Source: Dehalococcoidia bacterium (GTDB lineage Bacteria; Chloroflexota; Dehalococcoidia; Lucifugimonadales; VXLM01). Taken from it: 64,000 nucleotides of DNA. The notes under the pieces are model-generated. The model made no database searches. It saw nothing but the letters and a program-made list of their open reading frames with translations, and had not been told where the DNA came from. A program made the translations under genes and the position numbers. Positions 2,405 through 48,480 of the stretch are shown here, piece by piece; within the stretch, counting starts at the first letter, position 1; every line of letters starts with the position of its first letter. The DNA is taken from positions 1,843,531 through 1,907,530 of the forward strand of contig OZ251484.1 of NCBI GenBank assembly GCA_965242665.1, written 5' to 3'.

Positions 2405-2418
2405 AGTACTTATGTTCT
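2405..2418 (-). promoter_or_regulatory. LexA/SOS-box-like operator AGAAC-ATAA-GTACT
   Basis: 35 bp upstream of the radical SAM start. One mismatch to the GAAC-N4-GTTC LexA box of Firmicutes/Actinobacteria/Chloroflexi. Same format recurs at 2872, 3058 and 48452. Confidence 0.65.
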
Positions 2419-2436
2419 TTTACCACACAGCCATTG

Positions 2437-2820
2437 TCAACCCCCAAAAGTGCCCATGCGCCGAACCCGAGCGGAGCGCGGTCTCATATTGGTTCCGTTT
2501 GATTTATTGGCATGGCGGCTATGGGACGGCAACTCCAAAGCGATACGTCGAATCCAATCCATGCCGAGAGAAAGGAACGGAACGCCGTTGCCTCGCGCGC
2601 GTGCGCGCACACGAGTTCTGTAGAATCTTGTCGGATTCTGTCGGGTTTTGTCGAATTTTGTAGAAGGCGGGAGGGAGGCCGTCTCTTCGGGGGTTTGGAC
2701 GCAGGGGGGATTCCCGCCTTCGCGGGAATGACGTGAGTGGGTGCGGGAATGACAGGGGTGAGTGTGGTCATGCAGATGGCCGGCGGAGGAGGTGGTTGGG
2801 GGCTGGTATGGTTCACGCAT
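2437..2820 (-). CDS. Possible 127-aa ORF inside element A (coding status doubtful)
   Basis: AAGGAG RBS precedes ATG 2820. Shares GNGVPF and LELPSxxRHANxSNxT with ORF 48050-48400, but part of the shared DNA is read in different frames in the two copies. Confidence 0.3.
   Translation of the reverse strand: MREPYQPPTTSSAGHLHDHTHPCHSRTHSRHSREGGNPPCVQTPEETASLPPSTKFDKTRQNPTRFYRTRVRARARGNGVPFLSLGMDWIRRIALELPSHSRHANKSNGTNMRPRSARVRRMGTFGG
2710..2729. repeat. ATTCCC-N8-GGGAAT palindrome (dRS3/REP-like)
   Basis: Further copies at 2917-2936, 3103-3122, 30919-30938, 53646-53665 and 53706-53725. Confidence 0.9.
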
Positions 2821-3137
2821 GGGGGTATCTCCTTGGGTTGTGGTTTTGCGGAGTGGTCATAGTCCTATGGTAGTACGTGGGTTCTGTTTTGTCAAATGTG
2901 ATGCAGGGAGGTGGAGATTCCCGCCTACACGGGAATGACGTGGGTGTGTGCGGTCATACGGATGGCCGGCGTGGGAGGTGGTTGGGGGCTGGTATGGTTC
3001 ACGCATGGGGGTATCTCCTTGGGTTGTGGTTTTGCGGAGTGGTCATAGTCCTATGGTAGTACGTGGGTTCTGTTTTGTCAAATGTGATGCAGGGAGGTGG
3101 AGATTCCCGCCTACGCGGGAATGACGTGGGTATGTGG
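2766..3137. repeat. Tandem duplication, 2 x 186 bp, containing the element promoter and a dRS3-like palindrome
   Basis: Near-identical units start at 2766 and 2952 (e.g. GGTGGTTGGGGGCTGGTATGG at 2791 and 2977). Confidence 0.95.
2867..2895 (-). promoter_or_regulatory. sigma70-type promoter TTGACA-N17-TACCAT with AGAAC-CCAC-GTACT box in the spacer (duplicated at 3053-3081)
   Basis: Reverse complement reads TTGACA aaacAGAACCCACGTAC TACCAT. Confidence 0.75.
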
Positions 3138-3193
3138 GAATGACGGGGGAGAGTGTGCCAATGAATCGAACGGAACTCTGAGGGCGAGGGACG

Positions 3194-3222
3194 TTGACGT
3201 GAAAAGTTCGATATGATAGGAT
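3194..3222 (+). promoter_or_regulatory. Predicted sigma70 promoter TTGACG-N17-TAGGAT of the MarR-ABC operon
   Basis: Motif match. It overlaps ATG 3213, which implies the true MarR start is downstream (GTG 3234 or later). Confidence 0.5.
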
Positions 3223-3233
3223 ACTTCGAGTTA

Positions 3234-3746
3234 GTGGAACCAAAGGCGGCTCTCTTGCAACCAACGAGAAGAAAACTCATCGACCGCATTGTTGCCAGCA
3301 TGGATAGAATCGGGAGGCTCGGAAGGGCGCGCTACCGAGACGAGCTTGCGGGCTTCGACATGACCATGCCGCAAATCCGCACCCTCTACTTCCTGAGCCG
3401 CGGCCCTCAGCGCATGAGGGATATCTCCGACCACCTAATGCGCGGGATGCCCTCCGCAACGAGCATGATAGATCGACTCGTCGCCAAAGGATACGTCGAG
3501 CGCATCCCCAACCCCTCCGACCGTCGAGTCGTCCTCTGCCGGATAACCGACGCAGGACAAGAAGTGCTCGACCGCTTTTCGCGCATGGGCGCAATCCGCC
3601 TCGAATCCGTCGCCGACTCGTTGACCGACGAGGATCTGAATACCATCGCCCCGGCCCTGGACATCCTAGCCGCCGCGATGGCCGAGCAAATCACGTCTGA
3701 GGCGCACGCTTGCGACAATTCCGAGGCGAAGCCGCAATGCGGCTGA
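3234..3746 (+). CDS. MarR family transcriptional regulator (start uncertain)
   Basis: MTMPQIRTL...SATSMIDRLVAKGYVERIPNPSDRRVVLCRIT winged-helix pattern. Confidence 0.9.
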   Translation: MEPKAALLQPTRRKLIDRIVASMDRIGRLGRARYRDELAGFDMTMPQIRTLYFLSRGPQRMRDISDHLMRGMPSATSMIDRLVAKGYVERIPNPSDRRVVLCRITDAGQEVLDRFSRMGAIRLESVADSLTDEDLNTIAPALDILAAAMAEQITSEAHACDNSEAKPQCG

Positions 3747-3777
3747 CGACGCACCCCAACGACAGGAGGCCACTGCC

Positions 3778-5739
3778 ATGATGTCAGGCGGAATGGGCGG
3801 CGGAGGATACTACGGCGGGCGCGGCTATGGCGGACCCATGCGCCGCATGAACGAAGCAGAACTAGACCAAGACGAGGCAGGAAAGATCTACGACCATCGC
3901 ATCGTCACGCGATTGCTCTCCTACTTTCGACCGTATGCATCCATCGTCATCGTCGCCTTCATCGCTACCATGGCATATACCGCCACCGTCGTAGCCCTGC
4001 CGTTGATCGTAGCCAGAGTAATCGACGACTACATTCGACCAGGAGACCTCTCCGGCTTGAACTGGATCGTCGGAGTGTTCGTCGCCGTTGCCGCCGCACA
4101 GTTCATCGCAAGCTACCTCAACATGCGTCTCATGGCGCTCGCCGGACAAAACGTCCTCCGCACCCTCCGAGTAGAGCTGTTCAATCACATCCAACGCCTC
4201 TCCATGTCGTTCTTCGATAAGAACGAGGTCGGACGCATCATGTCCAGAGTCCAAAATGATGTGCGACAACTCCAAGAAGTCTTGTCCGTCTTCGTGAACA
4301 GCTTTGGACAAATACTCAGTCTCATCGGCATCGTCGGCGCGATGATGTTCTTGAACGTCCAGCTGGCGCTCATCACCCTGTCCGTCGTCCCCATTCTCTT
4401 CATCGCCTTGAACGTATGGCAGCGGTTCGCCCGCCGATCCTTCATGCGGGTCCGCACAGCCATCGCAGAGGTCAACTCCGGCCTCCAGGAAAACATCTCC
4501 GGCGTCAGGGTCGTTCAGAGCTTGAATCAGGAAGAGCGGAACATCCGCCGATTCGAGCAATCGAACGTTGCAAATCTCGAAGCCAACCTCCAAGCCAGCC
4601 GCCTCAGCGCCGCCCTCCTTCCCACCGTAGAGCTGCTAACATCCTTGGGTCTGGCGCTCGTCGTCTTCTTCGGCGGCTACATGGTCTTCGGCGGAGACGT
4701 CGAAGCAGGCGTGCTCGTCGCCTTCGCCCTCTACATCCAGCGCTTCTTCGAACCCGTCCGCACCCTCACGCAAGAATACGGCAGCTTGCAAAGAGCCATG
4801 GTCTCCGGAGAGCGCATCTTCGAAATACTCGACCGAACCCCGGACGTCGTAGAGCGGGACGACGCTCCCAACCTCCCTCCCATAAAGGGGAATATCGCCT
4901 ACCAAGACGTATCCTTCCACTACCAAGACGGCGAGCCAGTCCTGCAAAGCGTGAACCTCGACATCGCCGCCGGTCAGACGGTCGCCTTCGTCGGACCAAC
5001 CGGCGCAGGCAAGACGACCATGGTCTCCCTCCTCTTGCGACTCTACGACGTGACGGAAGGGCGTATCACCATCGACGGCGTCGACGTTCGAGATATTGCC
5101 CTCGACTCGCTCTACCACCAAGTCAGCGTCGTCCCCCAGGAGCCATACCTCTTCTCCGGCTCCACCATCGCAGACAACATCCGCTACAACCGCGCCGGGG
5201 TCTCAGACGAGCAGATCACCGCCGCGGCAAAGGCAGTGGGCGCGCACGAGTTCATCGCGAAACTCGAGCGCGGATACGATACCCCCCTGCAAGAGCGCGG
5301 AGGCAATCTGAGCATCGGGCAGCGCCAGCTCATTAGCTTCGCGCGCGCAGTCGTCGGAGAGCCCCGCGTCCTCATCCTCGACGAAGCGACCGCCAATATC
5401 GACACAAACTCCGAAATGCAGATACAGCGCGCGCTTACGGAGATGCTCGAACACCGAACCGCCGTCGTCATCGCACACCGCCTATCGACGATCCGAAACG
5501 CCGACGTAATCGCCGTCCTCGATGGCGGCAAGATAGTCGAGCAAGGCTCGCACGACGAGTTGACAGCGCTGAACGGCATGTATGCGCGGCTTCAATCGTT
5601 CGACAGCGCCGGACAAGAACACCTCCATCAACCCAAGCCCGGCCAACTCCCCCGGAGGCAAGCCGCCCAGTGGGCGCAGCGCGGTGGACATAGGCCCCGA
5701 CGCCCGGGGATGCGACCGCCCATGCGCGGCCGGGAGTGA
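3778..5739 (+). CDS. ABC exporter, fused TMD + ATPase (MdlB/Sav1866-like)
   Basis: Six TM segments, Walker A GPTGAGKTT, signature LSIGQ, Walker B ILDEATA, H-loop IAHRLST. Confidence 0.95.
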   Translation: MMSGGMGGGGYYGGRGYGGPMRRMNEAELDQDEAGKIYDHRIVTRLLSYFRPYASIVIVAFIATMAYTATVVALPLIVARVIDDYIRPGDLSGLNWIVGVFVAVAAAQFIASYLNMRLMALAGQNVLRTLRVELFNHIQRLSMSFFDKNEVGRIMSRVQNDVRQLQEVLSVFVNSFGQILSLIGIVGAMMFLNVQLALITLSVVPILFIALNVWQRFARRSFMRVRTAIAEVNSGLQENISGVRVVQSLNQEERNIRRFEQSNVANLEANLQASRLSAALLPTVELLTSLGLALVVFFGGYMVFGGDVEAGVLVAFALYIQRFFEPVRTLTQEYGSLQRAMVSGERIFEILDRTPDVVERDDAPNLPPIKGNIAYQDVSFHYQDGEPVLQSVNLDIAAGQTVAFVGPTGAGKTTMVSLLLRLYDVTEGRITIDGVDVRDIALDSLYHQVSVVPQEPYLFSGSTIADNIRYNRAGVSDEQITAAAKAVGAHEFIAKLERGYDTPLQERGGNLSIGQRQLISFARAVVGEPRVLILDEATANIDTNSEMQIQRALTEMLEHRTAVVIAHRLSTIRNADVIAVLDGGKIVEQGSHDELTALNGMYARLQSFDSAGQEHLHQPKPGQLPRRQAAQWAQRGGHRPRRPGMRPPMRGRE

Positions 5740-5799
5740 CCAGGGCCGCCGTCCTACCCGTCGCAAATCGAATTGACGCGCGCTACGATGCGCCCGCGG

Positions 5800-7551
5800 T
5801 CATAGATGACCCTCTGCCTTCCAAACTTCCCGCAGGACTCCAATCATACGGCGGTTCGTCTCCGCGTCCTTGACCGCAATCCGGATCGACCGGCTGCCAA
5901 GCCTCGGGGCCGTTGCCCCCGCATCCCGAAGGAACAAGCCGTACTCTCGACACCTCGCCATGAGGGCCGCAGCGTCGGGGCCGTACTCAGGCAGATGGCA
6001 GAGAAGATAGTTCGCCTCTCCTGGCACGACTGTGAAGTTCCCTATACCCTGCAAGTCCGCCGCCAACTGCGTTCGCAGTCGGTGCGTCTCCTGATACCGC
6101 TTGGCGTAGTATTCGGAGTCTTGCAATGCCATGACCGCCGCCATCTGCCCCGGCAAGCTCACTGCCCACGGGGGATTCAACGGCCTCAGCCGCTCGATCA
6201 CGCGGGGATGACCGCATAGGTATCCAACCCGCACGCCGCTGAGCGCATACGCCTTCGACATAGACTTGCAGACCACCACGTTCGGGCTATTCGCGGCGAA
6301 ATGCTCAAGCGATTCATGCTTCCCAACGTAGTCTACGTACGTCTCGTCGACCAAGACGATGCTATGCGGCGGGATGCCGCGCAGCAAATCTTCCAGAGCC
6401 GCCCGCGGGATGTGGCGTCCAGTCGGGTTGTTTGGGTTCACGATCACGGCCAGATCGTAACCCCTCATGAGCTCCTCTTCGAGCCGCCTTGGACTCACCG
6501 CATATCCGTCGCCGCGGCTCAATTCGAGCCGGCCTACTCTGCACCCAATGACGTTCTCGAAAACGTGCGTATACTCGCCGTACGTGGGGTCGAGAACAAG
6601 CACTCTCGAAGACGGCGAGAGCCATTGACGGAGGGCAAGGAAGATCAGGTTGGAAGAGCCCCCGCCCGGAAGCACGGACTCCTCGCGAACGCCGCGGCTC
6701 CGCGCTATCTGCGCAATCAGCCCCTCGCACCCCGTTGGAGGCGAGGTGCGAACCGCCCACGGCAGATACTCTCTCAGCGTGTCGATCACCTTCGGGGACG
6801 GTGGAAACCAAGCATCCAACACATCCGCGTTGATGATATGCGCGATGCTCCGCAGGTCTTCGAAGCCATGGCCAATGGCATCGAAAGAAGCGCCTCCGTG
6901 ATACGCTGTGGCCGACGCTCTCATTGGTATTTCAAGCTGCCAATCGAGCCTATTCAGCCTCTGATCGATGCTGCGTTTGGACGCCATCGTCTCCCCTAGG
7001 CGGTCCACGGAATCCCGCACGGCGTCGATCGTGCCGGTCAGGAGCTCGAACCGAACCGCCCCGGACGTCACTTGCCTGCCAGCCGGCCGGAGCCCTGCCT
7101 TCACATAGAGCCTCAGCAACTCCGCGCGGCCAATGGCAACGATGTTCCTGCCGCCCCTCGACTCGATCCATCGAAGGGCGGCGTACATGAGCACCGCAGC
7201 CGCCAAACTACCCCGAAACGCCCTCGCAACCGTGAGTAGGCGCAATTCGTACAAACCCTCGTCGAACGGCGCCGGCACGTCATCCCTGCGGAAATACTTG
7301 TCCACGGAATACGATCCATTGCCCGGCGGGGTAATGCTGATGAATCCAGCAATCAGACCGTTCGATTTGGCGACGATATACGAATTGAACTCGTCCAAAG
7401 GGTCGGTCAATCTGCCGTCGACGTTTTCCGGATGTTGGCCCAACTCCCTGGCATAGACCTCGTGGCGCAGCCTGAATATGTCGTTCATGTCGCAGGCAGT
7501 CGCCAGAGCGACCGTCAGGCCTTTCCGCGGTGATGGACCCGGCATTCTCAT
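5800..7551 (-). CDS. Fusion of GNAT-type N-acyltransferase and class I/II PLP enzyme (CobD/HisC-like)
   Basis: N-terminal FRLRHEVYARELG...YELRLLTV GNAT-like domain. C-terminal HGG, VNPNNPTG, VDETY and PLP-lysine motif SMSKAYALSGVRVGY. Confidence 0.85.
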   Translation of the reverse strand: MRMPGPSPRKGLTVALATACDMNDIFRLRHEVYARELGQHPENVDGRLTDPLDEFNSYIVAKSNGLIAGFISITPPGNGSYSVDKYFRRDDVPAPFDEGLYELRLLTVARAFRGSLAAAVLMYAALRWIESRGGRNIVAIGRAELLRLYVKAGLRPAGRQVTSGAVRFELLTGTIDAVRDSVDRLGETMASKRSIDQRLNRLDWQLEIPMRASATAYHGGASFDAIGHGFEDLRSIAHIINADVLDAWFPPSPKVIDTLREYLPWAVRTSPPTGCEGLIAQIARSRGVREESVLPGGGSSNLIFLALRQWLSPSSRVLVLDPTYGEYTHVFENVIGCRVGRLELSRGDGYAVSPRRLEEELMRGYDLAVIVNPNNPTGRHIPRAALEDLLRGIPPHSIVLVDETYVDYVGKHESLEHFAANSPNVVVCKSMSKAYALSGVRVGYLCGHPRVIERLRPLNPPWAVSLPGQMAAVMALQDSEYYAKRYQETHRLRTQLAADLQGIGNFTVVPGEANYLLCHLPEYGPDAAALMARCREYGLFLRDAGATAPRLGSRSIRIAVKDAETNRRMIGVLREVWKAEGHL

Positions 7552-7771
7552 CTCCCTCGATTATTGGTGCGTACCATTATGACAGACTCCCCGCACGAAG
7601 ACGATAGCGCGTCCCGAAGCAGCAGTTCCGCGTTTCCTCTACACTGCGCTTGGAGTGTCCCTACGTATACGCGGCGGCCGCAGACCACTGGATTTCTGAA
7701 TCCAGGACACACCGCACGCATAGAATAAACGGAACCGCGCCGACAGCGGTGAAGTCCGATGCAGGCCCATC

Positions 7772-8572
7772 CTAGCGCGGCCGCGCTGCCAACTCGATGG
7801 CGTCAGACGGAATCCACCCCTGAAGGTCGCCGCCGGGCAGCGCGATCCAACGCCATCCCTGACGAAATTCCACGATGCGTACTTGTGCGCCGCTGTGAAG
7901 TGTGAACTCCGTGGGATACTGCGCGCCCGGCCCGCTTAGGACATCGATCTCCTGTGCGGTTATGATGCCTGCATCGTCGTTGGGGTTCGCGTACAACATG
8001 CTCGACAGCAGCAGTAAAGAGAAGAACGCCGCTGTCATCCCCGCGACCGAACTCCCCTGCACGAGCGCCCTGAGTCGCATTGTCGGACGCAGCGCCGCCG
8101 CTCCCATCCCCAGAGCGCTGCACACCCACAGCGCGAGTGCTCCTATGCCAATCTCCTCCGCCGTGGCCAGTCTTCGCCCAAAAGCCGATATGCTTGCGAT
8201 GAGGGAGTCTTCTCCCTCGATCTGATCGATGGTCCGGCTGCGCGCCAGCTCGAGGTTTGCGCGGATGTCCGGGTCGCGGGGAGACAGATCCTGGGCGCGC
8301 AAATAGTTGAGGATGGCGCGGCCGAGATCCTCCATCTTGAAGTAGGCGTTCCCCGCGTTGTAATACAGCGCGGCATCCTCGTACCCCCGCTCGATGAGAT
8401 CCTCATACGCTTGTACGGCCCCTGCGAAATCCCCCCGTTCGTACCTATCGTTCGCATCGGACATCGTGTCCGCAGCCGAGCGTTCTTGCGCCAGCGCAGC
8501 GCCGCCGGCCGCCGCAAGGACCGCCGTGCCCCCCGCCAATAGACCGATCAATAGCCGCCAGAGACCCCTCAT
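7772..8572 (-). CDS. batE: BatE-like TPR + SH3 protein
   Basis: TPR (YYNAGNAYFKMEDLGRAILNY), TM helices, C-terminal SH3-like (FTLHSGAQV...GWI); operon context. Confidence 0.8.
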   Translation of the reverse strand: MRGLWRLLIGLLAGGTAVLAAAGGAALAQERSAADTMSDANDRYERGDFAGAVQAYEDLIERGYEDAALYYNAGNAYFKMEDLGRAILNYLRAQDLSPRDPDIRANLELARSRTIDQIEGEDSLIASISAFGRRLATAEEIGIGALALWVCSALGMGAAALRPTMRLRALVQGSSVAGMTAAFFSLLLLSSMLYANPNDDAGIITAQEIDVLSGPGAQYPTEFTLHSGAQVRIVEFRQGWRWIALPGGDLQGWIPSDAIELAARPR

Positions 8573-10425
8573 TCCGAAATCGCTCCGTCCAACTCATCCA
8601 AGAGACGTCCAACCATCTCATAATATCCAGTGAACTCTGCGGAGTCGCTCGACGCGCGTCCGTACTTTGCCACCTCTCCAGTGGATAGCACGTCCTCGAC
8701 GCGGCCCGCCAAGTCGGGACTCACTCCCGCTTCGAGCAGCTTCTGGGCAAGCGCCTCGTGCGTAAGCCCGCCCATCGGCGCGCCGAGCCGCGTGGAGAGG
8801 TACGTCAACAAGATATCCGCCATTACAGCCGCCGGATCCTCCGTCGCCGGAGCCGCCAGCGCAATTGCCGCGTGCGCCTCCGGCAGCGCATTCCGCCGCC
8901 GCGCCGCGGCCTCGTCGTACCTTGCCTTCCGACGACTCCACGCCGCGGCCAACGCCAGCGCCATCAAAGGCGCGCCCCACGCCGCCCAATATGCCGCGCT
9001 CCCAACGAACCCGCCGTCAGACTGCCGCGGCAGCGACGACGGCGCAGCCTTGATGTGCCGCACATCCGACCCCGCACGCTCCACGCCCCCAGCGCCGTCC
9101 GACGCAGGCACGGTCACTCCGTCCGGGTCTGCTATGGTCATCGGAATCGGATCCGTAGCCGCCGCTGTATATTCCCCCGTCTCCGTATTGAAGAACGGGT
9201 ACGTGATGCGTGGAATCTCCAACTCCCCTGCCCGCTGCGGCACTAAGATGACCTCGTAGTCCCGCGCGCCCACGAGACGCCCGTCTATCACGCGGCTCCG
9301 ATCCGTCGCCGGCGACTCGAACACCCGCCAATCCACGAACTCCGGCCACGCCGGATCCGGCAGAAACTCAATGTTCCCTTCCCCAGAGATCGACACCGTG
9401 AGCTGCACCGGCTCGTTGACTTTCCCCTCCGTGCTGTCCACCTCCGACGTCATGTCGAACCTGCCGACCGCCCCGGTGAAGCCCGCAGGTGCGTCCGCCG
9501 GCAGCGGACGCACCTGCATGAGTATCGGTTCGGTCTCCAGATAATTGGGCGGTGCGTAGAAGTCGATCGGCACCGACAACTCAGCCGGTTCGATCGTGAT
9601 CGTCCCGACCACGCTGGGAAAGAGCACCGTTTGTAGTTCGACCACCGTATACCGGTCGAAGCCGAACGCCTCGGTGTATTCCGTCTCATCGATCTCCTGG
9701 TTGTTCCAAAAGCCTGAAAAGTCCGGCGGCTGATACTGCGGCCTCCCGTACTGCCCAAACGATGAAAGCACAGACCGCCGATAGAACTGAAATGTATACG
9801 TGACCTGCTCCCCCAAGTACGGACGGTCGTCGTCCACCGACGCCCTAACGAATATCGCAGGATATCGCTGGTCCTCTTGCGCTCCGCTCTGAGGCGCGGA
9901 ATCTCCCGTACTAGGCGCCGCGCCCTCCGTCCCTAGGCCGCGGTACACCCGAACCTGGATATCCTCCGTGCGGTATGTCCGCCCGCCAATCGCAGCCTCA
10001 ATGGATGGAATCGTTATCGTTCCCTCGCGCGTCGCAACGAATGGGTAGCGGAAAGATACCAGTGTCGTAAGCGACCCATTCGTGAGGGTGGACTGTCGAA
10101 ACATCGACGGCTGCCCGGCGAGTCGCAGTCCGTCGATGTCTGGTAGTTCCGGCAACCTCGGGTTCAGCGGCCCTCCAGTCACCGTAACCGTCAGGTTCAA
10201 CCTCTCCCCAACCGCCACCTCCGACCGGTCTACCTCTGCGACGACCTCCGGCTCCTGTGCAGGCGGCTGCTGCGCGTGCGCGCCAGACCCACCCGCAACC
10301 GCAACCACGGCGACGGCAGCGCAAATCGCCCACGCGACGCGGACGGATCCCGCCGCCAGAACGCAGCGTGCGCGCCGCATCGTTTGGTTCAATACCATGA
10401 GACCACAACTACCAGTCGAATTCAC
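8569..10425 (-). CDS. batD: BatD family protein (start uncertain)
   Basis: Signal peptide, repeated Ig-like BatD segments (GAVGRFDM, GEGNI), one TM; operon context. Confidence 0.85.
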   Translation of the reverse strand: MNSTGSCGLMVLNQTMRRARCVLAAGSVRVAWAICAAVAVVAVAGGSGAHAQQPPAQEPEVVAEVDRSEVAVGERLNLTVTVTGGPLNPRLPELPDIDGLRLAGQPSMFRQSTLTNGSLTTLVSFRYPFVATREGTITIPSIEAAIGGRTYRTEDIQVRVYRGLGTEGAAPSTGDSAPQSGAQEDQRYPAIFVRASVDDDRPYLGEQVTYTFQFYRRSVLSSFGQYGRPQYQPPDFSGFWNNQEIDETEYTEAFGFDRYTVVELQTVLFPSVVGTITIEPAELSVPIDFYAPPNYLETEPILMQVRPLPADAPAGFTGAVGRFDMTSEVDSTEGKVNEPVQLTVSISGEGNIEFLPDPAWPEFVDWRVFESPATDRSRVIDGRLVGARDYEVILVPQRAGELEIPRITYPFFNTETGEYTAAATDPIPMTIADPDGVTVPASDGAGGVERAGSDVRHIKAAPSSLPRQSDGGFVGSAAYWAAWGAPLMALALAAAWSRRKARYDEAAARRRNALPEAHAAIALAAPATEDPAAVMADILLTYLSTRLGAPMGGLTHEALAQKLLEAGVSPDLAGRVEDVLSTGEVAKYGRASSDSAEFTGYYEMVGRLLDELDGAISE

Positions 10426-11218
10426 TTGGTGGATCGCGCGGGACGATCACCTGCTGTAGCCGCTCCTGAAGCGTCTGCGCATCATCGCTCATCGCCTCCA
10501 GCAGCTGCCGCGCCTGATCCTCCGTTATCGGCTCCGTCTGTGGACGCGACTCCATCTCCTGCTGATTCGGCTCCCCGTCCTGCTCCTGCGCGTCCTGTTG
10601 TTGCCCATCCTGCTCCTGCTGATCCCCTTCTTCCTGCGGTTCTTGTTCTTGGTCGTCCTGTTGTTGCCCCTGCTCGTTCGGTTGAGGCTCCTGCTCCTGC
10701 CCTTGCGGCCCTGGCTCCGGACTTTCATCCGGCTCCTGCCCCTGTTGAGGTTCCGGCGTCGGAAGCAGCCTCATCGCCAATTCCAAGTTATGCCGAGTCT
10801 CCTCGTTGTCCGGCTCCAACCGCAGAGCCTCCTTGAACGCAACGACCGCATCGGGGTACTCCTGCATTTGGAAGAATGCGTTGCCTCGGTTGAACTGCGC
10901 GTCAGCGCGCAGGGGATTCTCCTCCGCACGCTTGATAGCCTCGTCGTACTCTTGGATCGCTCCGCCGTAGTCCCCCGATCGATACAGCGCGTTCCCTGCA
11001 TTGTAGTACGGTTCGCCGGCGTCCGGTGCCAGTTCTTGCGCCGTTCGATACGCTTCTGCCGCCGCGCCGTAGTCCCCTGCATCGAGCAGCTCGTGTCCGG
11101 AGTCGTTCGCCCGTTCGGGGGCACCGCTGCACCCCAGCGCGGTCACCGCAAAGACGCCGGCCAGCAAGAATATCCGGAAGCCCCCGCCGATCGTGCAGAC
11201 TACGGCGTGCTCAAGCAT
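10409..11218 (-). CDS. batC: BatC-like TPR lipoprotein with Gln/Glu-rich linker
   Basis: TPRs YYNAGNALY and FNRGNAFF, HNLELA, Q/E-rich stretch, terminal DW. Confidence 0.8.
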   Translation of the reverse strand: MLEHAVVCTIGGGFRIFLLAGVFAVTALGCSGAPERANDSGHELLDAGDYGAAAEAYRTAQELAPDAGEPYYNAGNALYRSGDYGGAIQEYDEAIKRAEENPLRADAQFNRGNAFFQMQEYPDAVVAFKEALRLEPDNEETRHNLELAMRLLPTPEPQQGQEPDESPEPGPQGQEQEPQPNEQGQQQDDQEQEPQEEGDQQEQDGQQQDAQEQDGEPNQQEMESRPQTEPITEDQARQLLEAMSDDAQTLQERLQQVIVPRDPPSEFDW

Positions 11219-12257: not shown

Positions 12258-12267
12258 TCCAACCCCC

Positions 12268-15268: not shown

Positions 15269-15269
15269 C

Positions 15270-17746: not shown

Positions 17747-17810
17747 TCATGCTTCGAACCCAACCAAATACGGTATAATGTACCTCAGAGCCCCATTCCC
17801 CTCCCACAAT

Positions 17811-34389: not shown

Positions 34390-34459
34390 TCTTGCCTCCT
34401 GTTCCTCAATTTTCGATTCGCCATTTCGCATTTCGCCGCAGCGAAATGAGCCAGATCGC

Positions 34460-34927: not shown

Positions 34928-34977
34928 CGTCTTCTCCTTCGCAAATCATAGAACCGGATTCAGATACGCGCGGCAGA

Positions 34978-36336: not shown

Positions 36337-36515
36337 GACCTGCCCTCGACCTTCTCCCGCGGCGCGCAGTCTCGATTCGACCGTTCCCTCGAAACCCCCC
36401 AGCGCCGCAGCGATCCGATAGTGTGATACTACCCAATACCGCGCCGCAATTCAACACCGCGCGCCGGGCGGTTCCGTTCTACGACATACGGCGCATATGA
36501 TACGATGCTCACGCA

Positions 36516-38054: not shown

Positions 38055-38080
38055 ACTCGCAGGCTATGGGGGGCTCCATC

Positions 38081-39265: not shown

Positions 39266-39290
39266 ACTCGCAGGCTATGGGGGCTCCAAC

Positions 39291-40397: not shown

Positions 40398-40458
40398 CGG
40401 ACGATGCGTCTTGGTATACTATGGGAGACGAGACTCCGCGGCCCCATAGGGAGGTGAC

Positions 40459-41535
40459 ATGATAGATCGAGACCGGTTGGTGAAGACGTTCTGCGACCTC
40501 GTGCAGATTGGCAGCGAGTCTGGCAACGAGGACGCCAAAGCGGCCGACATGGCTCGCCGGCTTGGTGAGCTCGGCTTCGACGTGGAAACGGACGGCTACG
40601 GCAATCTCATCGCGCACGAAGACGGCGACGACCCATTCATGCTCTCCGGACATCTCGATACGGTGTCTCCAGGCAATGGAATCCGGCCCGTAGTGGACGG
40701 AGACCGGATCACGTCCGACGGGATGACCATCGGCGGCGGCGACGACAACGCAGGACTGGCGATCATCCTCGAAACCCTCGCCTCCATGGCGGAGGATGGA
40801 ACCCGCAGGCGCCCCGTCGAAGTAGTCCTCACTCGGGAAGAAGAGCCCGGCTTGGTCGGCGCTCACAAGCTGGATTTCACGAAGATTAGGTCGAAGGAGT
40901 CGATCGTCTTCGACCGAGAAGGCCCCGTCAATCGCATCACCTTGGCAAGTCCGACCTACGTCGCCTATGACATCACGGTTACCGGCCGTGCCGCACACGC
41001 GGGCATCGAGCCCGAAAATGGCATATCCGCAATTCGCATCGCATCCGAAATCGTCGTGCGTCTGCCGCAGGGCCGACTCGACGAGGAAACGACCTTCAGC
41101 GTTGGAACGATCGAGGGCGGATCCACCAGAAACACGGTGCCCCAGATCGCCACCCTCACCGGAGAGTTTCGCACCATCAATATGGAGACCCTCGACAACC
41201 TACTCCTCGAAATCGAGAACGTATTGGCGGATGTAAGCGCCCAGCATCCGGACGCCTCTGTTAGCAGCGACGTCTATCCGAAGTTCAAGACATTCCGCAT
41301 CGACGAGAACCATCCAACGACCAAGCGCGTCGTAGCCGCGCTCGACGCCATCGGACTCGAACCTGACTTTCGCCTGTCCGGAGGAGGAAGCGATGCCAAC
41401 GTCTTCTGGCAGCGCGGCATCGCCGCGATCGTGTGTGGCATGGCAGACTACAATATGCACACCCTGCAGGAGTACGTGGTGATCCCCGAGCTGGTACAGT
41501 GCGTCGAGTTCTGCAGGGAGCTCGTCAAGGCCTAG
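40459..41535 (+). CDS. M20/M25/M40 family metallopeptidase (PepT-like)
   Basis: HLDTV, GGDDNAG, EEE, GRAAHAG, GGSDAN, H near C-terminus. Confidence 0.88.
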   Translation: MIDRDRLVKTFCDLVQIGSESGNEDAKAADMARRLGELGFDVETDGYGNLIAHEDGDDPFMLSGHLDTVSPGNGIRPVVDGDRITSDGMTIGGGDDNAGLAIILETLASMAEDGTRRRPVEVVLTREEEPGLVGAHKLDFTKIRSKESIVFDREGPVNRITLASPTYVAYDITVTGRAAHAGIEPENGISAIRIASEIVVRLPQGRLDEETTFSVGTIEGGSTRNTVPQIATLTGEFRTINMETLDNLLLEIENVLADVSAQHPDASVSSDVYPKFKTFRIDENHPTTKRVVAALDAIGLEPDFRLSGGGSDANVFWQRGIAAIVCGMADYNMHTLQEYVVIPELVQCVEFCRELVKA

Positions 41536-41537
41536 CC

Positions 41538-42851
41538 ATGCTAGTGCGCCTCGCGTATGGACGCAGCGGACTCACGGTCGATCTGCCAGACGACCGCACC
41601 ACCATCGTAGAGCCGACGTATGTGCCCGGGCTGCCAGACCCGCAGAGTGCGATCCGCAACGCCCTGCGCAATCCCTTGGGAGGCGGGCCCAGCCTGAGGC
41701 GCTTGGTGAAGGCGGGGCAGACCGTAGCGGTCTCCGTGTGCGACGGCACCCGCCCAATGCCGTCGAAGGTCGTCCTTCCGGCGCTCATGCGCGAGCTGGC
41801 GCACGTGCGCGCAGACCATATCACGATACTCGTTGCCGCCGGGACTCACCGCCCCAATACCCCCGATGAGCTCGAAGAGATGCTCGGGGCAGACATCACG
41901 AGCAACTACCGAGTCGTCAATCACGACGCATTCGACGCTCGGACGCTGGAGCGCGCGGGCGAGTCCTCGGAAGGAATTCCGATCTGGCTCAACCGCCGGT
42001 GGCTGGCGGCAGATGTCCGGATCACCACGGGATTCGTCGAGCCCCATTTCTTCGCAGGATTTAGCGGCGGCCCGAAGATGGTCGCGCCCGGTCTCGCGGG
42101 ATTCGAAACGACCATGCACTTGCACAACGCGGAACGGATCGGGCATCCGATGGCCGTGTGGGGCGTAACCCTCGGCAATCCCGTCCACGACTCGATCCGC
42201 GAAATCGCTTCCACTACCGGCGTCGACTTCAGCGTCGATGTGACCATCAACCGCGACGGCAAGATCACCAGTGTCTACGCGGGGGATCTGTTTCGAGTTC
42301 ACGCCGCAGCGTGCCGCTCCGCCAAGAACACGGCAATGCAGAAGGTAGATGGGCGGTTCGACGTGGTCGTGACGACGAACAGCGGATATCCTCTCGACCA
42401 AAACCTCTATCAGGCCGTCAAGGGAATGTCCGCGGCCGCGCAGATCGTCGAGGATGGAGGAACGATCGTCTGCGCCGCAGAATGCAGAGACGGCATCCCA
42501 GAGCATGGGCAGTACCAGAAGCTGCTAGGGATGCGGGACTCGCCCGAAGAGTTGTTGCAGATGATTACCGCCCCGGGACATGCCGTCCACGATCAATGGC
42601 AAGTGCAGCTGCAAGCACAGATACAGATGAGGGCGCGCGTGTGCCTGAAGTCCGAATACCTAACGCGCGAGCAGGTCACGCAGGCGCATCTAACGCCGGT
42701 CGAGAGTATCGAGGATGCCGTTGCAGAAGCCCTGCGGTCGAGCGGCGAAGACGGGCGGGTCTGCGTCCTTCCGGAAGGGCCGCAGACGATCCCATACGCG
42801 GTAGAAGGGACCGCGGAGCCCCGCGGCCCCTTCTACCCAATCTTCGGCTAG
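41538..42851 (+). CDS. LarA (nickel-dependent lactate racemase) family protein
   Basis: [30 protein letters not shown]-x-N-x-YQ-x-x-K motif, GTIV. Confidence 0.88.
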
Positions 42852-43240
42852 GTGATGGCGACGGTCGCGCCGGCCTCTTCCAAAGCCGACTTGGACTCCT
42901 CCGCCTCCTCCTTGCTCACACCCTCCTTGATATTGGAGGGCAGGTTCTCGACCACCTCTTTCGCTTCCTTGAGGCCGAGTGACGTCATGGCGCGAACCGC
43001 CTTGATGACGTTGATCTTCTTTTCTCCGAAGTCTTTGAGGACGACGGTGAACTCCGTTTGTTCCTCTTCCTCGGCCGCTGCCGCCCCGTTCGAGCCGTCG
43101 GCGGCAACAGGCGCTGCCGCTACCGCCATGGGCGCAGCCGCACTCACGCCAAAAGTCTCCTCGAGCTCTTTGACGAGGTCGGCCAACTCAACCACCGTCA
43201 TCCCTTTGATAGCTTCCAGTATTTCCTCTTTCGTTGCCAT
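42848..43240 (-). CDS. rplL: 50S ribosomal protein L7/L12
   Basis: KINVIKAVR...LGLKEAK. Confidence 0.98.
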
Positions 43241-43319
43241 GAGAATTCGCTCCTTGCTGATTTCCGTAGTTTGGGTTGTTCTGCTTGCCCTACTAGGGGT
43301 GAATTTGAATGGCGCCGTT

Positions 43320-43883
43320 TTATTCGGATGCGCCGGCCTTCTGATCTGCGATTGCCTTCAACGCGGTCACCAAGCCGACTTGCGGAGCGTTCAGCACGTA
43401 TGCCAAATTCCGCATGGGAGCTTGCAGCGTCCCTAACAGTCCCGTGATGGGGAATTGGAGTTGCCCCAGTAGCTGGGACAATACCACTTCCTTGGATGGC
43501 AGAGTGGTGAGATGGTCGACTTCCTCGGCCGTTAGCGTCTTGCCGCCCAATACGGCGCCGGTGATGACCATGCGCGCGCGCGTCGCGGCGAGGTGATCCG
43601 TCAATATCTTTGCCGCCGTGGACGGCTCCCCGAACCCGAAGACGATGCCGGTCGGGCCCTTGACGATATCCTTGATCTCAGGCGCCCCGGCTTGATCGGC
43701 AGCGATGTACGCAAGAGTGTTCTTCACGACGCGCAAGCGTATCCCATTCTCTCGTAGGACGCGCCGGAGATCGGTCATGTCCGGTACGGACATGCCGTTG
43801 TTGTACGCGCCGATGGCGATAGTCGCCGCATCGATCAACTCTCGTATCTCGCGTATCTGTTCTTCTTTTGCGGGTGTTGGCAC
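43320..43883 (-). CDS. rplJ: 50S ribosomal protein L10
   Basis: [13 protein letters not shown]; GTG start after GGAAAGG. Confidence 0.95.
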
Positions 43884-43934
43884 TGTATTCACCTTTCCGT
43901 TTTCGTTCGACCCGTCGTCAGACGGAAGGCCAAA

Positions 43935-44073
43935 CAAAAATCCTCGAGCCGGAGACTCGAGGCGTCGGAATGTGAAACCGGCCGCGTTTCGCCTGCGGCA
44001 AGTTTCCTATCTCGGCAACCTCGGCGGGCCTCGAAGAGTTTACTCCGCCAGAGGCGGAACCCACTGTCTACGG
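43935..44073 (-). ncRNA. Ribosomal protein L10 leader (autoregulatory 5' UTR)
   Basis: Located between rplA and rplJ; begins CCGTAGACAG, as L10 leaders typically do; multi-hairpin. 3' boundary approximate. Confidence 0.55.
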
Positions 44074-44084
44074 CACTGCGTGTT

Positions 44085-44798
44085 CTATTCTACTGTAATG
44101 GTCGTTAGGGCCGCAACATCCAAAGCGATGCTCGGCCCCATCGTGCTGGCAAGATATGCGGCGATGACGAACTGTCCCTTGACCCCGCTCGGGCGCGAGC
44201 GGGTGATGTTGTCCATGATCGACGACAAATTCTCCAGAAGATGGGTCTCGTCGAAACTCGCCTTGCCAATGGCCAGGTGCATCAGCCCCGTGCGGTCGAG
44301 GCGGTACTCGACGCGCCCTTTCTTGGACTCGCTGATGACGCGCGGAAGATCGTCGGCTTGGACGACGGTTCCCGTCCTCGGGTTGGGCATAAGGCCGCGC
44401 CGACCCAAGTACCGCCCCAGCCGTCCTATCCTGCTCATCATGTCCGGAGTCGCAATGGCAACGTCGAAATCGACCCAGCCGTCCTCGACTCGCTTGACTA
44501 GGTCGTCGCTCCCAACGAAATCCGCTCCGGACTGCTCGGCTACCGCGGCGGCCTCGCCCTCCGTGAAGACCGTTACCCTCACCGGCTTGCCGATGCCGTG
44601 CGGAAGGACGGCCACACCGCGCACGACCTGATCCGCGCGCTGCGGATCCGCTCCAGTGCGGAGATGGAGCTCCACCGTCTCGTCGAATCCCGCAGTCGCA
44701 GTCTGCTTGACGAGGCGAACTGCTTCCTCCGGCCGGTAGATTCTCCCCGGGTCGACGAGTTCCTTTGCGGCTGCGTATCGCTTGGTTGCTGTTGTCAT
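44085..44798 (-). CDS. rplA: 50S ribosomal protein L1
   Basis: FDETVE, LPHGIGK, GLMPNPRTGTV, STMGPS. Confidence 0.98.
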   Translation of the reverse strand: MTTATKRYAAAKELVDPGRIYRPEEAVRLVKQTATAGFDETVELHLRTGADPQRADQVVRGVAVLPHGIGKPVRVTVFTEGEAAAVAEQSGADFVGSDDLVKRVEDGWVDFDVAIATPDMMSRIGRLGRYLGRRGLMPNPRTGTVVQADDLPRVISESKKGRVEYRLDRTGLMHLAIGKASFDETHLLENLSSIMDNITRSRPSGVKGQFVIAAYLASTMGPSIALDVAALTTITVE

Positions 44799-44840
44799 GG
44801 GTTCATCCTCGTCATGTCTGCGTGGAGTAGGCTCCGAAAG

Positions 44841-45266
44841 TTAGCGTTGGACCTGGATGCCGATGCTCCGCGCCGTTCCTTCGATGATCTTCATGGCGCC
44901 GTCGATGTCGGCGGCGTTCAGGTCTTGCATCTTCGTCTGTGCAATCTGCCGCACCTGTTCGGATGTCACGGTTCCCCTCTTCTCGGCCAAGGGGTTCCCG
45001 CTGCCCTTTTCGATCCCCGCGGCTTGTAAGAGCAAAGACGCGGCCGGAGGAGACTTGAGGATGAACGTAAACGAACTATCCTCGAATATCGTCAGCTCCA
45101 CCGGTACGATCATCCCCATCTGTTGCGCTGTGCGCGCGTTGTACTCTTTGACGAACGCCATGATGTTCAAGCCGTGCTGCCCAAGAGCAGGGCCCACAGG
45201 GGGAGCCGGAGTTGCCTTCCCCGCTTCGATTTGCAGCTTGATGACGGCCCTGACCTTCTTAGCCAA
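44841..45266 (-). CDS. rplK: 50S ribosomal protein L11
   Basis: [16 protein letters not shown]. Confidence 0.98.
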
Positions 45267-45316
45267 TGTGATCTCCTGACTGTAGTGCGTTTAGGGATAG
45301 ACTGGGGACCTTGCGG

Positions 45317-45877
45317 TCAGCTCTTTTCCACCTGCAGGAAGTCTAGCTCCACAGGCGTTTCTCGCCCGAAGAACGATACGAGCACCTTGAGCTTGGATCG
45401 TTCCGGGTAGACCTCGTCGACGGATCCCATGAAGTCCATGAACGGGCCGTCGACGATTCTCACCATCTGACCCTTCTCGAATCCCACGCGCACGCGGGGT
45501 TGTGCGGACTTCATGTGGTTCAGGATGGAGTCGACCTCGCTTTGCTCCAACGGCACCGGTTTCGGGCGTTTCTCGAGTTCGTCTTCTACCGAAATGAACC
45601 CAGTCACGCCGGGAGTGTTCCGCACGACGTACCAGCTCTCGTCGTTCATTTCCATTTCGACGAGGATGTAACCGGGGAACACGCGGCGAGCAACAGACGT
45701 CCGCTTGCCTTCCTTGATCTCGATCTCTTCCTCCGTCGGAACGACAACTTGGAATATCTTGTCGCCAACGTCCATGGACTCTATTCGCAGGGTGAGGTTC
45801 TTCTGGACGCGGTCTTCCTGTCCTGAGTACGTGTGGACGATGTACCAGCGGCGGTCTGTCGTTTCTGTCGTGCTCAT
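45317..45877 (-). CDS. nusG: Transcription termination/antitermination factor NusG
   Basis: WYIVHTYSGQE, FPGYILVEM, KOW GPFMDF, FFGRETPVEL. Confidence 0.98.
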   Translation of the reverse strand: MSTTETTDRRWYIVHTYSGQEDRVQKNLTLRIESMDVGDKIFQVVVPTEEEIEIKEGKRTSVARRVFPGYILVEMEMNDESWYVVRNTPGVTGFISVEDELEKRPKPVPLEQSEVDSILNHMKSAQPRVRVGFEKGQMVRIVDGPFMDFMGSVDEVYPERSKLKVLVSFFGRETPVELDFLQVEKS

Positions 45878-45878
45878 T

Positions 45879-46115
45879 TCATATCCCCAAGATCACGTCC
45901 ATCAGCCGCGCGAACAGCAGATCCACAGCACTCAGAAATGCCCCGATAGCAGCCGAAACTGCGATCACCATCAAGGTCAGGCGCATCGTCTCTTCCCGCG
46001 ATGGCCACGTAACCCGCTTCAACTCCTGATACGACTCGGAGATGAAGCGGAGGCTCAATCCTCTCCTTGCTTGTCCTGCGCCTGATTGTCTTCCTGCCAA
46101 TGGGTTGCGGGCCAT
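45879..46115 (-). CDS. secE: Preprotein translocase subunit SecE
   Basis: ELKRVTWPS plus one TM; canonical position. Confidence 0.95.
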   Translation of the reverse strand: MARNPLAGRQSGAGQARRGLSLRFISESYQELKRVTWPSREETMRLTLMVIAVSAAIGAFLSAVDLLFARLMDVILGI

Positions 46116-46118
46116 GGG

Positions 46119-46286
46119 CTACCTCACCTCCCGGTGCGGTGTGTGCTTGCGGCAGCGCGGGCAGAACTTTTTGAGCTCCAACCGCTCCGGGTCGTTGCGC
46201 CGGTTCTTGCTCGAGTGGTACGTCCGCTCTCGACAGTCGACGCAGCCCAAGTTTATCAGGATGCGGGTGTCTCCTCTGCGGGGCAT
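46119..46286 (-). CDS. rpmG: 50S ribosomal protein L33 (Zn-binding C+ type, 55 aa)
   Basis: Hand translation [55 protein letters not shown]. Confidence 0.96.
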
Positions 46287-46358
46287 GGCTTCCTCTTTCG
46301 GGTGCGGAATTGGCGGGCGGGCCGCAGATGCGTCTGCCCGCCAATTCTCCGCTGGTCG

Positions 46359-47558
46359 CTATTCCTTGATCGCCGTGAAGACTCCGGATCCGACGGTGCG
46401 TCCGCCTTCGCGGACGGCGAACCGCAGCTGATCCGTCATGGCCACCGGCGTCGTGAGATTGATGTCCATCTCGATGTTGTCCCCGGGCATGACCATCTCC
46501 ACGCCGTCGGGGAGCTTGATCTCGCCAGTGACGTCGGTTGTGCGGATATAGAACTGAGGCTTGTATCCGCTGAAGAACGGCGTGTGCCGCCCGCCTTCTT
46601 CCTTCGTCAAGACGTACACTTGGGCGCTGGCGCTCGTATGGGGGGTTACGCTCCCAGGCGCCGCGAGAACTTGCCCGCGCTCGACCTCGTCCCGATCGAC
46701 ACCGCGAAGGAGGAGCCCAACGGCATCGCCCGGCTCGGCCTCGTCGAGCATCTTGTGGAACATCTCGACTCCAGTCACGACAGTGCTGCTGGTCTCCTTG
46801 ATGCCTACGACGTCGACGGTGTCACCTACCTTGATGACCCCCTGCTCGACACGGCCGGTGACCACAGTGCCGCGCCCCTTGATGCTGAACACGTCCTCGA
46901 CGGGCATCAAGAACGGCTGGTCCCTGGGGCGGTCCGGAACGGGGACGTAGCTGTCGACGGCATCCATCAACTCCCAAATGCCGCTGCCCCATTCGGAATC
47001 TCTGGACATGTCGTTCGCTTCGAGCGCATTGAGCGCGCTGACCCGGACGAAGGGAATGTCATCTCCTGGGAAACCGTATTCCGTGAGCAGTTCGCGCATC
47101 TCTATCTCGACCAGCTCGAGCAGCTCCTCGTCGTCCATCATGTCCACTTTGTTCAGGGCGACGACGATGGCGGGCACCTCCACCTGCCGCGCAAGCAGGA
47201 TGTGCTCGCGGGTCTGCGGCATCGGGCCGTCAGGCGCGCTCACGACGAGGATTGCGCCGTCCATCTGCGCGGCGCCGGTGATCATGTTCTTGATGTAGTC
47301 CGCGTGGCCAGGACAGTCGACGTGGGCGTAGTGCCGCCCCTCCGTCGCATACTCCACATGCGTAATCGCGATGGTCACGCCGCGCTCTTTCTCTTCCGGC
47401 GCGTTGTCGATGCTGTCGAACTCGCGGAAGTCGGCAAGCCCGGCGTTCGCCAGAGTCTTGGTGATGGCCGCGGTCAGTGTGGTCTTCCCATGGTCGACGT
47501 GACCAATCGTGCCCACGTTCAAGTGCGGCTTATCCCGTACGAATCGTTCCTTCGCCAT
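46359..47558 (-). CDS. tuf: Elongation factor Tu
   Basis: [24 protein letters not shown]. Confidence 0.99.
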
Positions 47559-47609
47559 TTCCTGTCTCCTGTATTTGTGCTCTCTGTTGCGCCCGCAGTC
47601 GAAAGTTTG

Positions 47610-47685
47610 TGGAGCCCTCAAGCAGACTCGAACTGCTGACCTCGTTCTTACCAAGAACGCGCTCTGCCTCCTGAGCTATGAGGGC
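47610..47685 (-). tRNA. tRNA-Thr(GGT)
   Basis: GCCCTCA...CGTTC-TTGGTAA-GAACG...GAGGGCTCCA. Confidence 0.96.
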
Positions 47686-47720
47686 GCGGCACCTTCCTTT
47701 CAGAACGGACTACGGCTCTT

Positions 47721-47807
47721 TGGTGCAGGGAGTAGGATTCGAACCTACGTAGCCCTTCGGGCGCCAGATTTACAGTCTGGTGGATTTAACCACTCTCCCA
47801 TCCCTGC
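47721..47807 (-). tRNA. tRNA-Tyr(GTA)
   Basis: CCAGA-CTGTAAA-TCTGG anticodon arm, long variable arm, encoded CCA. Confidence 0.96.
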
Positions 47808-47921
47808 ACAAGGCCAACAACCATTTTAGTCTAGCATAGCGAGGTTTTCATTCTCAAGGTATCCCAAGCCTCGGTTTCCCTCAAAGCGCAGCGGCTTTCC
47901 TTTTTCGGTATAGTACAGAAG

Positions 47922-47995
47922 AGCCCCAGGGGGGACTCGAACCCTCCAACCTGCCGATTACAAATCGGCTGCGCTGCCGATTGCGCCACTGGGGC
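47922..47995 (-). tRNA. tRNA-Thr(TGT)
   Basis: GCCCCAG...GCCGA-TTTGTAA-TCGGC...CTGGGGCT; CCA not encoded. Confidence 0.95.
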
Positions 47996-48091
47996 CCGGC
48001 GGATTCTGTCAACAAGAAGGGCTAGCGTCAAACCAGCCCGTATCTCATTCTAATACATGAGAAGGAACTCGGTCAACGGTTTTGCTCCAGA

Positions 48092-48480
48092 GGTTTCGTT
48101 CGATCTATTGGCATGACGGATCGGGGACGGCAACTCCAAAAATCCGATGCGACCTGGGCGCAGTCCGTGCCGAGGGAAAGGAAACGGAACGCCGTTGCCT
48201 CTCACGCGCGCGTGCGCACGCGCGGGCACGAGTTTTCGTTGCGCCCTGTCGTATCCTGTTGCATTGTGTCGAATTCTGTCGGATTCTGCCGATCGCGAGT
48301 TTGGCATCGTCTCTTGATGTATGTTGCGATTGGGGGTGGAGGACGGGTGACGGTTTGGGGCGCGGAGTGACGCGGTCGGCAGTTTGCATGTCTCGGGCAT
48401 GGGTCGGCCTCCTCGGGGTCTGGTTTCGCATAGCGGTCATAATCCCAGAATAGTACACAAGTTCTGTTCTGTCAAATGTG
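48092..48480 (-). repeat. Dispersed element copy B (promoter TTGACA-N17-TATTCT, box AGAAC-TTGT-GTACT, RBS/ATG 48400, 10-bp repeats, hairpin)
   Basis: Collinear with 2491-2900. -35 at 48470-48475, -10 at 48447-48452, box at 48452-48465, hairpin at 48092-48191. Confidence 0.8.

Follow-up and report, generated by a model that had tools for sequence, protein, structure and literature searches.

Two copies of a promoter-bearing cassette

The 64,000-nucleotide stretch of DNA analysed here (the window) belongs to the 3.49-Mb genome of an uncultured Dehalococcoidia bacterium (60% G+C) whose nearest public relatives are Dehalococcoidia metagenome-assembled genomes (MAGs). It contains two copies, A and B, of a cassette that carries a promoter with a LexA-type box and that we identify below as a miniature inverted-repeat transposable element (MITE). 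Copy A lies between the genes for a radical SAM protein and a MarR-family regulator, and copy B lies beside a tRNA-Thr/Tyr/Thr cluster (Table 1). An earlier note on this DNA had described two minus-strand loci with one shared, ordered architecture, and both its exact coordinates and the order of the parts were reproduced in our analysis. In an alignment of positions 2430-2910 and 48080-48490 with the duplicated promoter region of copy A (2900-3095), the hexamers and box half-sites are identical in copy A, copy B and the duplicate, and the four-nucleotide core of the box (N4) differs. A consensus scan locates TTGACA-N17-TACCAT twice at locus A and TTGACA-N17-TATTCT once at locus B. Downstream of the promoter, both loci have AAGGAG or GAGGAG with an ATG, five 10-bp repeats, a GC-alternating palindrome and an inverted-repeat module of 94-100 nt. 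Copy A extends beyond the limits given in the earlier note, to a left terminal inverted repeat (TIR) at 3177-3154.

A modular family of about 84 copies

Four modules were excised from copy A and used as queries in iterated nhmmer searches of the whole genome: P (promoter to ATG), T (10-bp repeats plus GC palindrome), H (the hairpin module) and R, a palindrome resembling repetitive extragenic palindromic (REP) sequences (GTCATTCCCGCGnAGGCGGGAATC). The searches returned 84 copies each of P and T, 111 of H and ~728 of R, so that the cassette is a family of ~84 copies, far beyond chance, rather than a pair of loci. All modules of an array share one orientation and follow the order (R)n-P-(R)n-T-(R)n-H, with R numbers that differ from array to array. 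A full copy consists of a left 24-bp TIR, an arm of ~50 nt, P, T and H, with the right TIR terminating H. Element sizes range from 100 to 1200 bp, and the 84 P-bearing copies are accompanied by P-less copies of H or H2 type that share their TIRs; in the H2 subtype, perfect 24-bp inverted repeats (GGTTCCGTTTACTTTTGCGGCATG) enclose R arrays.

When 40 relatives were searched by BLAST with P, T and H, the sole match was one of 28 nt in promoter sequence, and R is the only module that relatives also have. The R core, ATTCCC-N8-GGGAAT, which we take to be identical to the neisserial dRS3 repeat, is common to the genus and occurs, in the opposite orientation, in the orthologous radical SAM/marR intergenic region of a relative.

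The cassette has transposed as a unit

The H module is bounded by inverted repeats, and what had been called a terminal hairpin is a transposon end. The 24-bp TIR reads GGTTCCGTTYGATTYATTGGCAT at one end, with its complement at the opposite end (element termini GGTTCCGTTT...AAACGGAACC). A search with the terminal 24-mer located 188 ends genome-wide and none in a reversed-genome control, and many P-bearing arrays have an inverted copy of the end at their far left, followed by the conserved ~50-nt arm leading into P. Among 46 TIR pairs, 16 are flanked by perfect 8-bp target-site duplications and 6 by duplications matching at 7 of 8 positions, compared with 1 in a control shifted by 12 nt. Five of the 16 perfect duplications flank P-bearing copies, which indicates that the whole cassette has transposed as a unit. 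With its TIRs, target-site duplications, small size, multiple copies and lack of an internal transposase, the cassette is a MITE.

The abundance of R invites a different account of this dispersal, a mosaic of the NIME or BIME type built by recombination at the REP-like palindromes rather than by transposition of a unit. Each module is flanked by R palindromes and set apart by them from its neighbours, the number of these palindromes varies between copies, P can be duplicated between them (R-P-R-P), and no other module is common to relatives. A mosaic of this kind is nevertheless hard to reconcile with whole P-bearing units that have TIRs and perfect 8-bp duplications, and the genome has no Y1/RAYT transposase (PF01797 is without a match in it; controls do match). 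We consider such an origin quite improbable; recombination or slippage at R probably accounts for variation inside the elements and not for their dispersal.

P has the design of a LexA-repressed promoter

P, a sigma-70-type promoter, follows the pattern TTGACA-N5-GAAC-N4-GTAC-TAnnnT (for example, TTGACA-AAACA-GAAC-CCAC-GTAC-TACCCT), in which the box fills positions 6-17 of the 17-nt spacer and abuts the -10 hexamer. The LexA box of Gram-positive bacteria and Chloroflexi in recA-type promoters is GAAC-N4-GTTC. The half-site GAAC, the 4-nt core and the location of the operator inside the -35/-10 spacer are shared with P, whereas the second half-site in this genus is usually GTAC. A literature search turned up no paper on the Dehalococcoides LexA site.

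The earlier note had singled out lexA and recA as genes whose promoters might carry a different box, and the outcome of that comparison favours the box. The genome's own recA promoter, TTGCAT-TCATA-GAAC-GTTT-ATGC-TATCGT, holds its box in the same register as P, and its own lexA promoter (...GTTCGGAACGTTAGTACA) contains the box GAAC-GTTA-GTAC. GAAC-N4-GTAC lies upstream of lexA in 14 of the 15 genus genomes with a full-length lexA. The segment GCTAC(G/T)TTTGTTCGGAACAT(C/T/G)(A/C)GTAC is nearly invariant in 13 congeners and yields both GAAC-N4-GTAC and an overlapping GAAC-AAAC-GTAG on the other strand; one more divergent genome has GTGC as the second half-site. The two overlapping boxes of the lexA promoter, which share GTTCGGAAC and are near-invariant across the genus, are located downstream of the -10. 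The statement in the earlier note that a box of the same type precedes the repair radical SAM gene also holds (AGAACATAAGTACT at 2418-2405), and the corresponding upstream region in relatives has GAAC-N4-GT(T/A/G)C boxes, either one or two of them.

In metagenomes, 52 contigs from soils, sediments and guts have an exact match to TTGACARAACAGAAC-N4-GTACTA. For 40 of these 52, gene calling gave a downstream open reading frame (ORF) of at least 50 aa, including 16 encoding RecA, 7 TetR-family proteins, 2 GyrI-like proteins and 1 homologue of the repair radical SAM protein, and P is identical to the metagenomic recA promoters over 21 specified bases. These recA-type matches give P the archetypal design of a LexA-repressed promoter, to which LexA is predicted to bind. 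The pattern TTGACA-N5-GAAC-N4-GTACTA-N3-T occurs 75 times in this genome, as against 0-5 times per congener and 0 times in a backwards control, and 74 of the 77 exact matches to TTGACA-N5-GAAC-N4-GTAC in the genome are transposon-borne. Outside P, the genome has ~93 occurrences of GAAC-N4-GTAC, equal to chance expectation, and the motif alone is thus insufficient to define a regulon. At C1:1446176-1446260, an H2 end lies 15 nt upstream of a native promoter with a LexA-type box in its spacer (TTGACG-GCACG-GAAC-TTCT-GTAC-TATCAT). Among the options raised in the earlier note, that of a mobile SOS-promoter cassette is the one borne out, by the 24-bp TIRs, the 8-bp duplications, a box like that of the lexA promoter and a register like that of recA.

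The downstream modules do not behave as an RNA or protein gene

Two other proposals of the earlier note, a structured RNA of ~400 nt and proteins of 116-127 aa, found no support. For the first, one can picture a family of ~400-nt damage-inducible structured small RNAs in which T serves as a repeat that binds protein or RNA and H as the structured 3′ domain. Such a family would account for a conserved promoter followed by conserved non-coding modules, and folding of single sequences does give a long hairpin in H. Against it, a search of Rfam at gathering thresholds matched tRNAs alone, no consensus structure emerged from RNAalifold for 29 H copies, and the TIR pairing in H (89.0% of cells paired, versus 88.7% in shuffles) showed no excess covariation. 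The pairing is conserved as sequence and not by compensation, which identifies H as a DNA-level transposon end rather than a selected RNA fold. The unit is also interrupted by R arrays of variable length, H, alone or combined with other cargo, also serves as the end of transposons flanked by target-site duplications, and neither T nor H of the window copies contains a convincing terminator. We regard the structured-RNA reading as largely refuted and give it very little credence. As for a protein, the ORF following the ATG ranges from none to more than 205 aa and is not conserved, and the pattern of ribosome-binding site and ATG is missing in 30 copies.

P and T derive from a gene for a helix-turn-helix protein

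The 28-nt BLAST match in one congener led to homologous promoters of a helix-turn-helix (HTH) gene in several congeners. There, a LexA-box promoter precedes a conserved leader and three or four 10-bp repeats (AATGCAACAR), which surround the start codon for an HTH protein of 152 aa; this protein matches PF13022 (HTH_Tnp_1_2) and phage small-terminase-like PHROGs. The gene is present in 2-18 copies per congener in differing genomic contexts, and a TTGACA-N5-GAAC-N4-GT(A/C)(C/T) promoter was found at no fewer than 7 of 12 inspected copies; in the rest, it lies beyond an inserted repeat. In the genome studied here, two P-T units still run into a homologous HTH ORF, one of 168 aa at C1:2486294-2486800 and a longer one near C1:813541 (retained ORFs span 168-261 aa), and the remaining 82 of the 84 copies lack this ORF. 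P and T are homologous to the promoter, leader and opening codons of this small gene, copies of which occur throughout the genus. P-T is the decapitated 5′ end of an HTH gene family with an SOS-type promoter, here enclosed in a TIR-bounded vehicle. Each congener repeat unit AATGCAACAR contains an ATG, such that successive units provide starts in different frames; the units in this genome are of the form CGACAnAAT, without ATG. The 10-bp repeats may be sites for the HTH protein.

This ancestry also suits an explanation without any regulatory effect on the host, in which the copies are selfish relics whose LexA-type promoter came with the parent HTH gene and is either silent or free of LexA control. 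The derivation of P-T from the 5′ end of a gene, the near-complete loss of the ORF and a level of overall conservation that is broadly similar in all modules are in keeping with it. The conservation of individual positions in P fits the function of a promoter and operator better than it fits a relic. Across the 84 copies, mean conservation is 1.00 in the -35 hexamer, 0.99 at nine of the ten half-site positions (AGAAC, GTAC) and 0.99 at positions 1, 2 and 6 of the -10, and falls to 0.73 in the N4 core, 0.61 at the three middle -10 positions and 0.83 at the remaining positions. Promoter and operator positions taken together are conserved at 0.992, versus 0.81 at other unassigned positions (Mann-Whitney p = 5e-8), and 17 variants of the N4 core occur alongside intact half-sites. 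This is the pattern that selection for a working promoter and operator would produce.

Elements are placed and oriented with respect to host promoters

A TTGAC begins 14-17 nt outside 31 of the 188 element ends, where ~1 would be expected. TAnnnT follows at a spacing of 16-18 nt in 25 of these 31 sites, compared with 7% of all genomic TTGAC, and the flanking gene reads away from the element in 23 of them. Element ends are thus found 15-16 nt upstream of -35/-10 promoters far more often than by chance. Both loci in the window are promoter-proximal in this way, with copy A abutting the marR-type promoter at its left end and copy B the tRNA-Thr promoter at its right end. To our knowledge, so sharp a preference for positions 15-16 nt upstream of -35 hexamers has no counterpart among other bacterial elements.

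The orientation of P, counted on a crude gene map of the genome, is strongly biased. Of 77 intergenic P copies, 63 face the 5′ end of the gene that follows, P is co-oriented with the genes in tandem contexts (28 versus 6, p = 2e-4), and 35 P copies lie in divergent regions as opposed to 8 in convergent ones. A bias of this strength is easiest to explain if the promoters fire, which speaks against silent relics. In favour of relics, no repair theme emerges from the 47 nearby downstream genes in the same orientation as P, whose functions are mixed and whose products include GyrA, TrmD, RNase Y, an amino-acid kinase, an SDR protein and an ABC ATPase. On balance, we judge it unlikely that the elements are relics with no bearing on the host.

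Cargo, nested insertions and features of the window

TIR pairs 0.7-3.5 kb apart were examined as candidates for an autonomous parent and rejected, their contents being cargo alone, namely a gene for a methylase-HNH or CoiA-like protein or a nested copy of an IS5-family element. The IS5-family copies were likewise dismissed as parents; they are unrelated insertions nested inside R or H2 arrays. This insertion sequence of ~1.3 kb (DUF772 plus DDE_Tnp_1, copies ~94% identical) is found at C1:1229857-1231149 and ~8 other sites (for example, C1:2004953-2006154 and C1:2484736-2486050), and its recurrent insertion inside R arrays or H2 elements suggests that it targets REP-like palindromes.

Methylase-HNH fusion genes are bracketed by similar inverted repeats (GGTTCCGTT..GGCA / TGCC..AACGGAACC) in the window (51553-55775), at C1:156256-158216 and from C1:826663 to ~828450, as is a gene for a CoiA-like protein of 355 aa (C1:2797143-2798323). 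From these bracketed genes, the TIR vehicle seems to carry restriction and nuclease genes as well as P-T. The H2-subtype MITE in the window is situated between two tandem methylase-HNH genes. Another H2 element (C1:2553148-2553362) is flanked by a direct repeat of ~40 bp instead of 8 bp, which may mean that it inserted into a tandem duplication or that repair took an unusual course.

Table 1 Positions of the MITE copies, their modules and neighbouring features in the window
Feature	Position	Strand	Details
Radical SAM protein gene	1015-2358	-	Downstream of copy A; best match TIGR03916 (putative DNA modification/repair radical SAM) + HhH
Native LexA-type box	2405-2418	-	AGAACATAAGTACT; radical SAM gene promoter, outside the MITE
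MITE copy A, complete	2491-3177	-	TIR-L, R, P, R, P, R, T, H/TIR-R
H of copy A	2491-2584	-	Inner TIR-like arm (GTTCCGTT...GGCATGG), core, right TIR (CCATGCCAATAAATCAAACGGAACC)
T of copy A	2592-2668	-	Five 10-bp repeats 2668-2619 (CGACAnAAT type); GC-alternating palindrome 2615-2592
R unit	2709-2732	-	GTCATTCCCGCGAAGGCGGGAATC; further units 2916-2939 and 3102-3125
P, downstream copy	2818-2905	-	TTGACA-N17-TACCAT 2895-2867; -35 2895-2890; LexA-type box 2885-2872; -10 2872-2867; AAGGAG, then ATG 2820-2818
P, upstream duplicate	3053-3081	-	TTGACA-N17-TACCAT 3081-3053; box AGAAC-CCAC-GTACT 3071-3058
Left TIR of copy A	3154-3177	-	AGTTCCGTTCGATTCATTGGCACA; outer end 16 nt from the -35 of the divergent marR-type gene
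Promoter-like site of MarR-family gene (3213-3746)	3194-3222	+	TTGACG-N17-TAGGAT; abutted by left end of copy A
Native promoter-like site of tRNA-Thr/Tyr/Thr cluster	48047-48076	-	TTGACC-N18-TAGAAT; tRNA-Thr 47921-47995
MITE copy B	48092-48510	-	Partial left arm, P, T, H/TIR-R
H and right TIR of copy B	48092-48191	-	Outer end 15 nt upstream of the -35 of the tRNA-Thr promoter
T of copy B	48201-48296	-	10-bp repeats 48296-48247; GC-rich palindrome 48232-48201
Core promoter of copy B	48447-48475	-	TTGACA-N17-TATTCT 48475-48447; box AGAAC-TTGT-GTACT 48465-48452; ATG 48400-48398
MITE, H2 subtype	53568-53786	-	Related MITE with TIRs of the same kind (GGTTCCGTTTACTTTTGCGGCAT); R units inside, no P or T; perfect 8-bp duplication GTGAGGCT

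Discussion

We think it reasonably probable that most copies of this MITE serve as portable damage-inducible upstream promoters, and as extra LexA sites, rather than as RNA or protein genes. In the mechanism that we propose, LexA bound to the spacer of P would block RNA polymerase, and DNA damage, through RecA-stimulated self-cleavage of LexA, would free ~80 additional promoters. Transcripts starting at P would pass through T and H, leave at the right end and cross the neighbour's promoter into its gene. The operators in the MITE copies would at the same time compete for LexA as additional binding sites. The copies themselves would have been moved by a transposase supplied in trans.

Several observations weigh against this interpretation. 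No transposase with matching TIRs was found in the genome, and searches of the genome and its relatives revealed no autonomous partner that shares these ends; 60 relatives lack the TIR motif, and a scan of all species genomes for H2-type TIRs gave two isolated matches, in a Dehalococcoidia MAG and an unrelated gut MAG. In the window, copy A has both ends and no recognisable target-site duplication, and the left TIR is undetectable in copy B, the 5′ side of which is truncated or decayed. The terminator-like hairpin at the T/H junction of copy A is weak, and such matches are equally frequent in shuffles. The N4 core in P is C-rich (CCAC or TCAC), whereas native sites are more A/T-rich, and the second half-site of the recA box is ATGC, which implies that the tolerated motif is loose. 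Recent amplification may account for part of the conservation of P, all modules being fairly well conserved, and the orientation bias could stem from insertion preference rather than from selection.

In form, the element is closest to the neisserial Correia elements and NIMEs and to pneumococcal BOX. These are small, non-coding, intergenic elements of modular build with REP-like palindromes, present in dozens to hundreds of copies, and they are able to supply active promoters and to change how adjacent genes are expressed. The small size, non-coding nature, high copy number and modularity are shared. The element described here differs in that its promoter holds a LexA-type operator, its 24-bp TIRs are accompanied by 8-bp duplications, its ends lie at a fixed distance of 15-16 nt from a resident -35 and its modules come from a recognisable HTH gene.

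In logic, the closest precedents are mobile-element promoters controlled by LexA. LexA binds and represses the transposase promoters of ISCR1, ISCR2 and ISCR8, and DNA damage induces them (PMC13393415). The ISCR elements are autonomous HUH/rolling-circle elements of Proteobacteria with an E. coli-type SOS box, whereas the MITE is non-autonomous, the HTH gene that its promoter drove is mostly deleted and LexA binding is predicted. In Mycobacterium tuberculosis, 13E12 repeats account for six of 25 LexA ChIP-seq peaks (PMC3381160). As with 13E12, a repeated family resembling an insertion element holds a large share of the (here predicted) LexA sites; the 13E12 repeats, however, are protein-coding, ~1.3 kb long and present in fewer than 12 copies, compared with ~84 mostly non-coding copies here, where promoters of this kind outnumber those of congeners ~25-fold. 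No publication linking MITEs to LexA boxes came up in a literature search.

A broader possibility, which we put forward tentatively and hold to be doubtful at present, is that the transposon has rewired a stress regulon. The MITE would target sites ~15 bp upstream of sigma-70-type promoters and deliver a LexA-repressed promoter there, such that 50-60 unrelated genes gain damage-inducible read-in and ~80 operators buffer LexA. The genes brought under this control would include gyrA, trmD, the RNase Y gene, tRNAs, restriction-modification genes and others, and the outcome would be a prokaryotic counterpart of the transposon-driven expansion of regulons in eukaryotes. The fixed spacing of 15-16 nt would imply that the transposase recognises promoter DNA or promoter-bound RNA polymerase.

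For the annotation of this sponge-symbiont-like lineage, the family explains hundreds of spurious ORFs and 'orphan promoters'. If LexA controls the copies, more than nine-tenths of the genome's recA-style LexA-operator promoters would be transposon-borne, at ~25 times the number in sister species, and the family would stand as a clear example in bacteria of a transcription-factor site and a promoter dispersed jointly by a mobile element.

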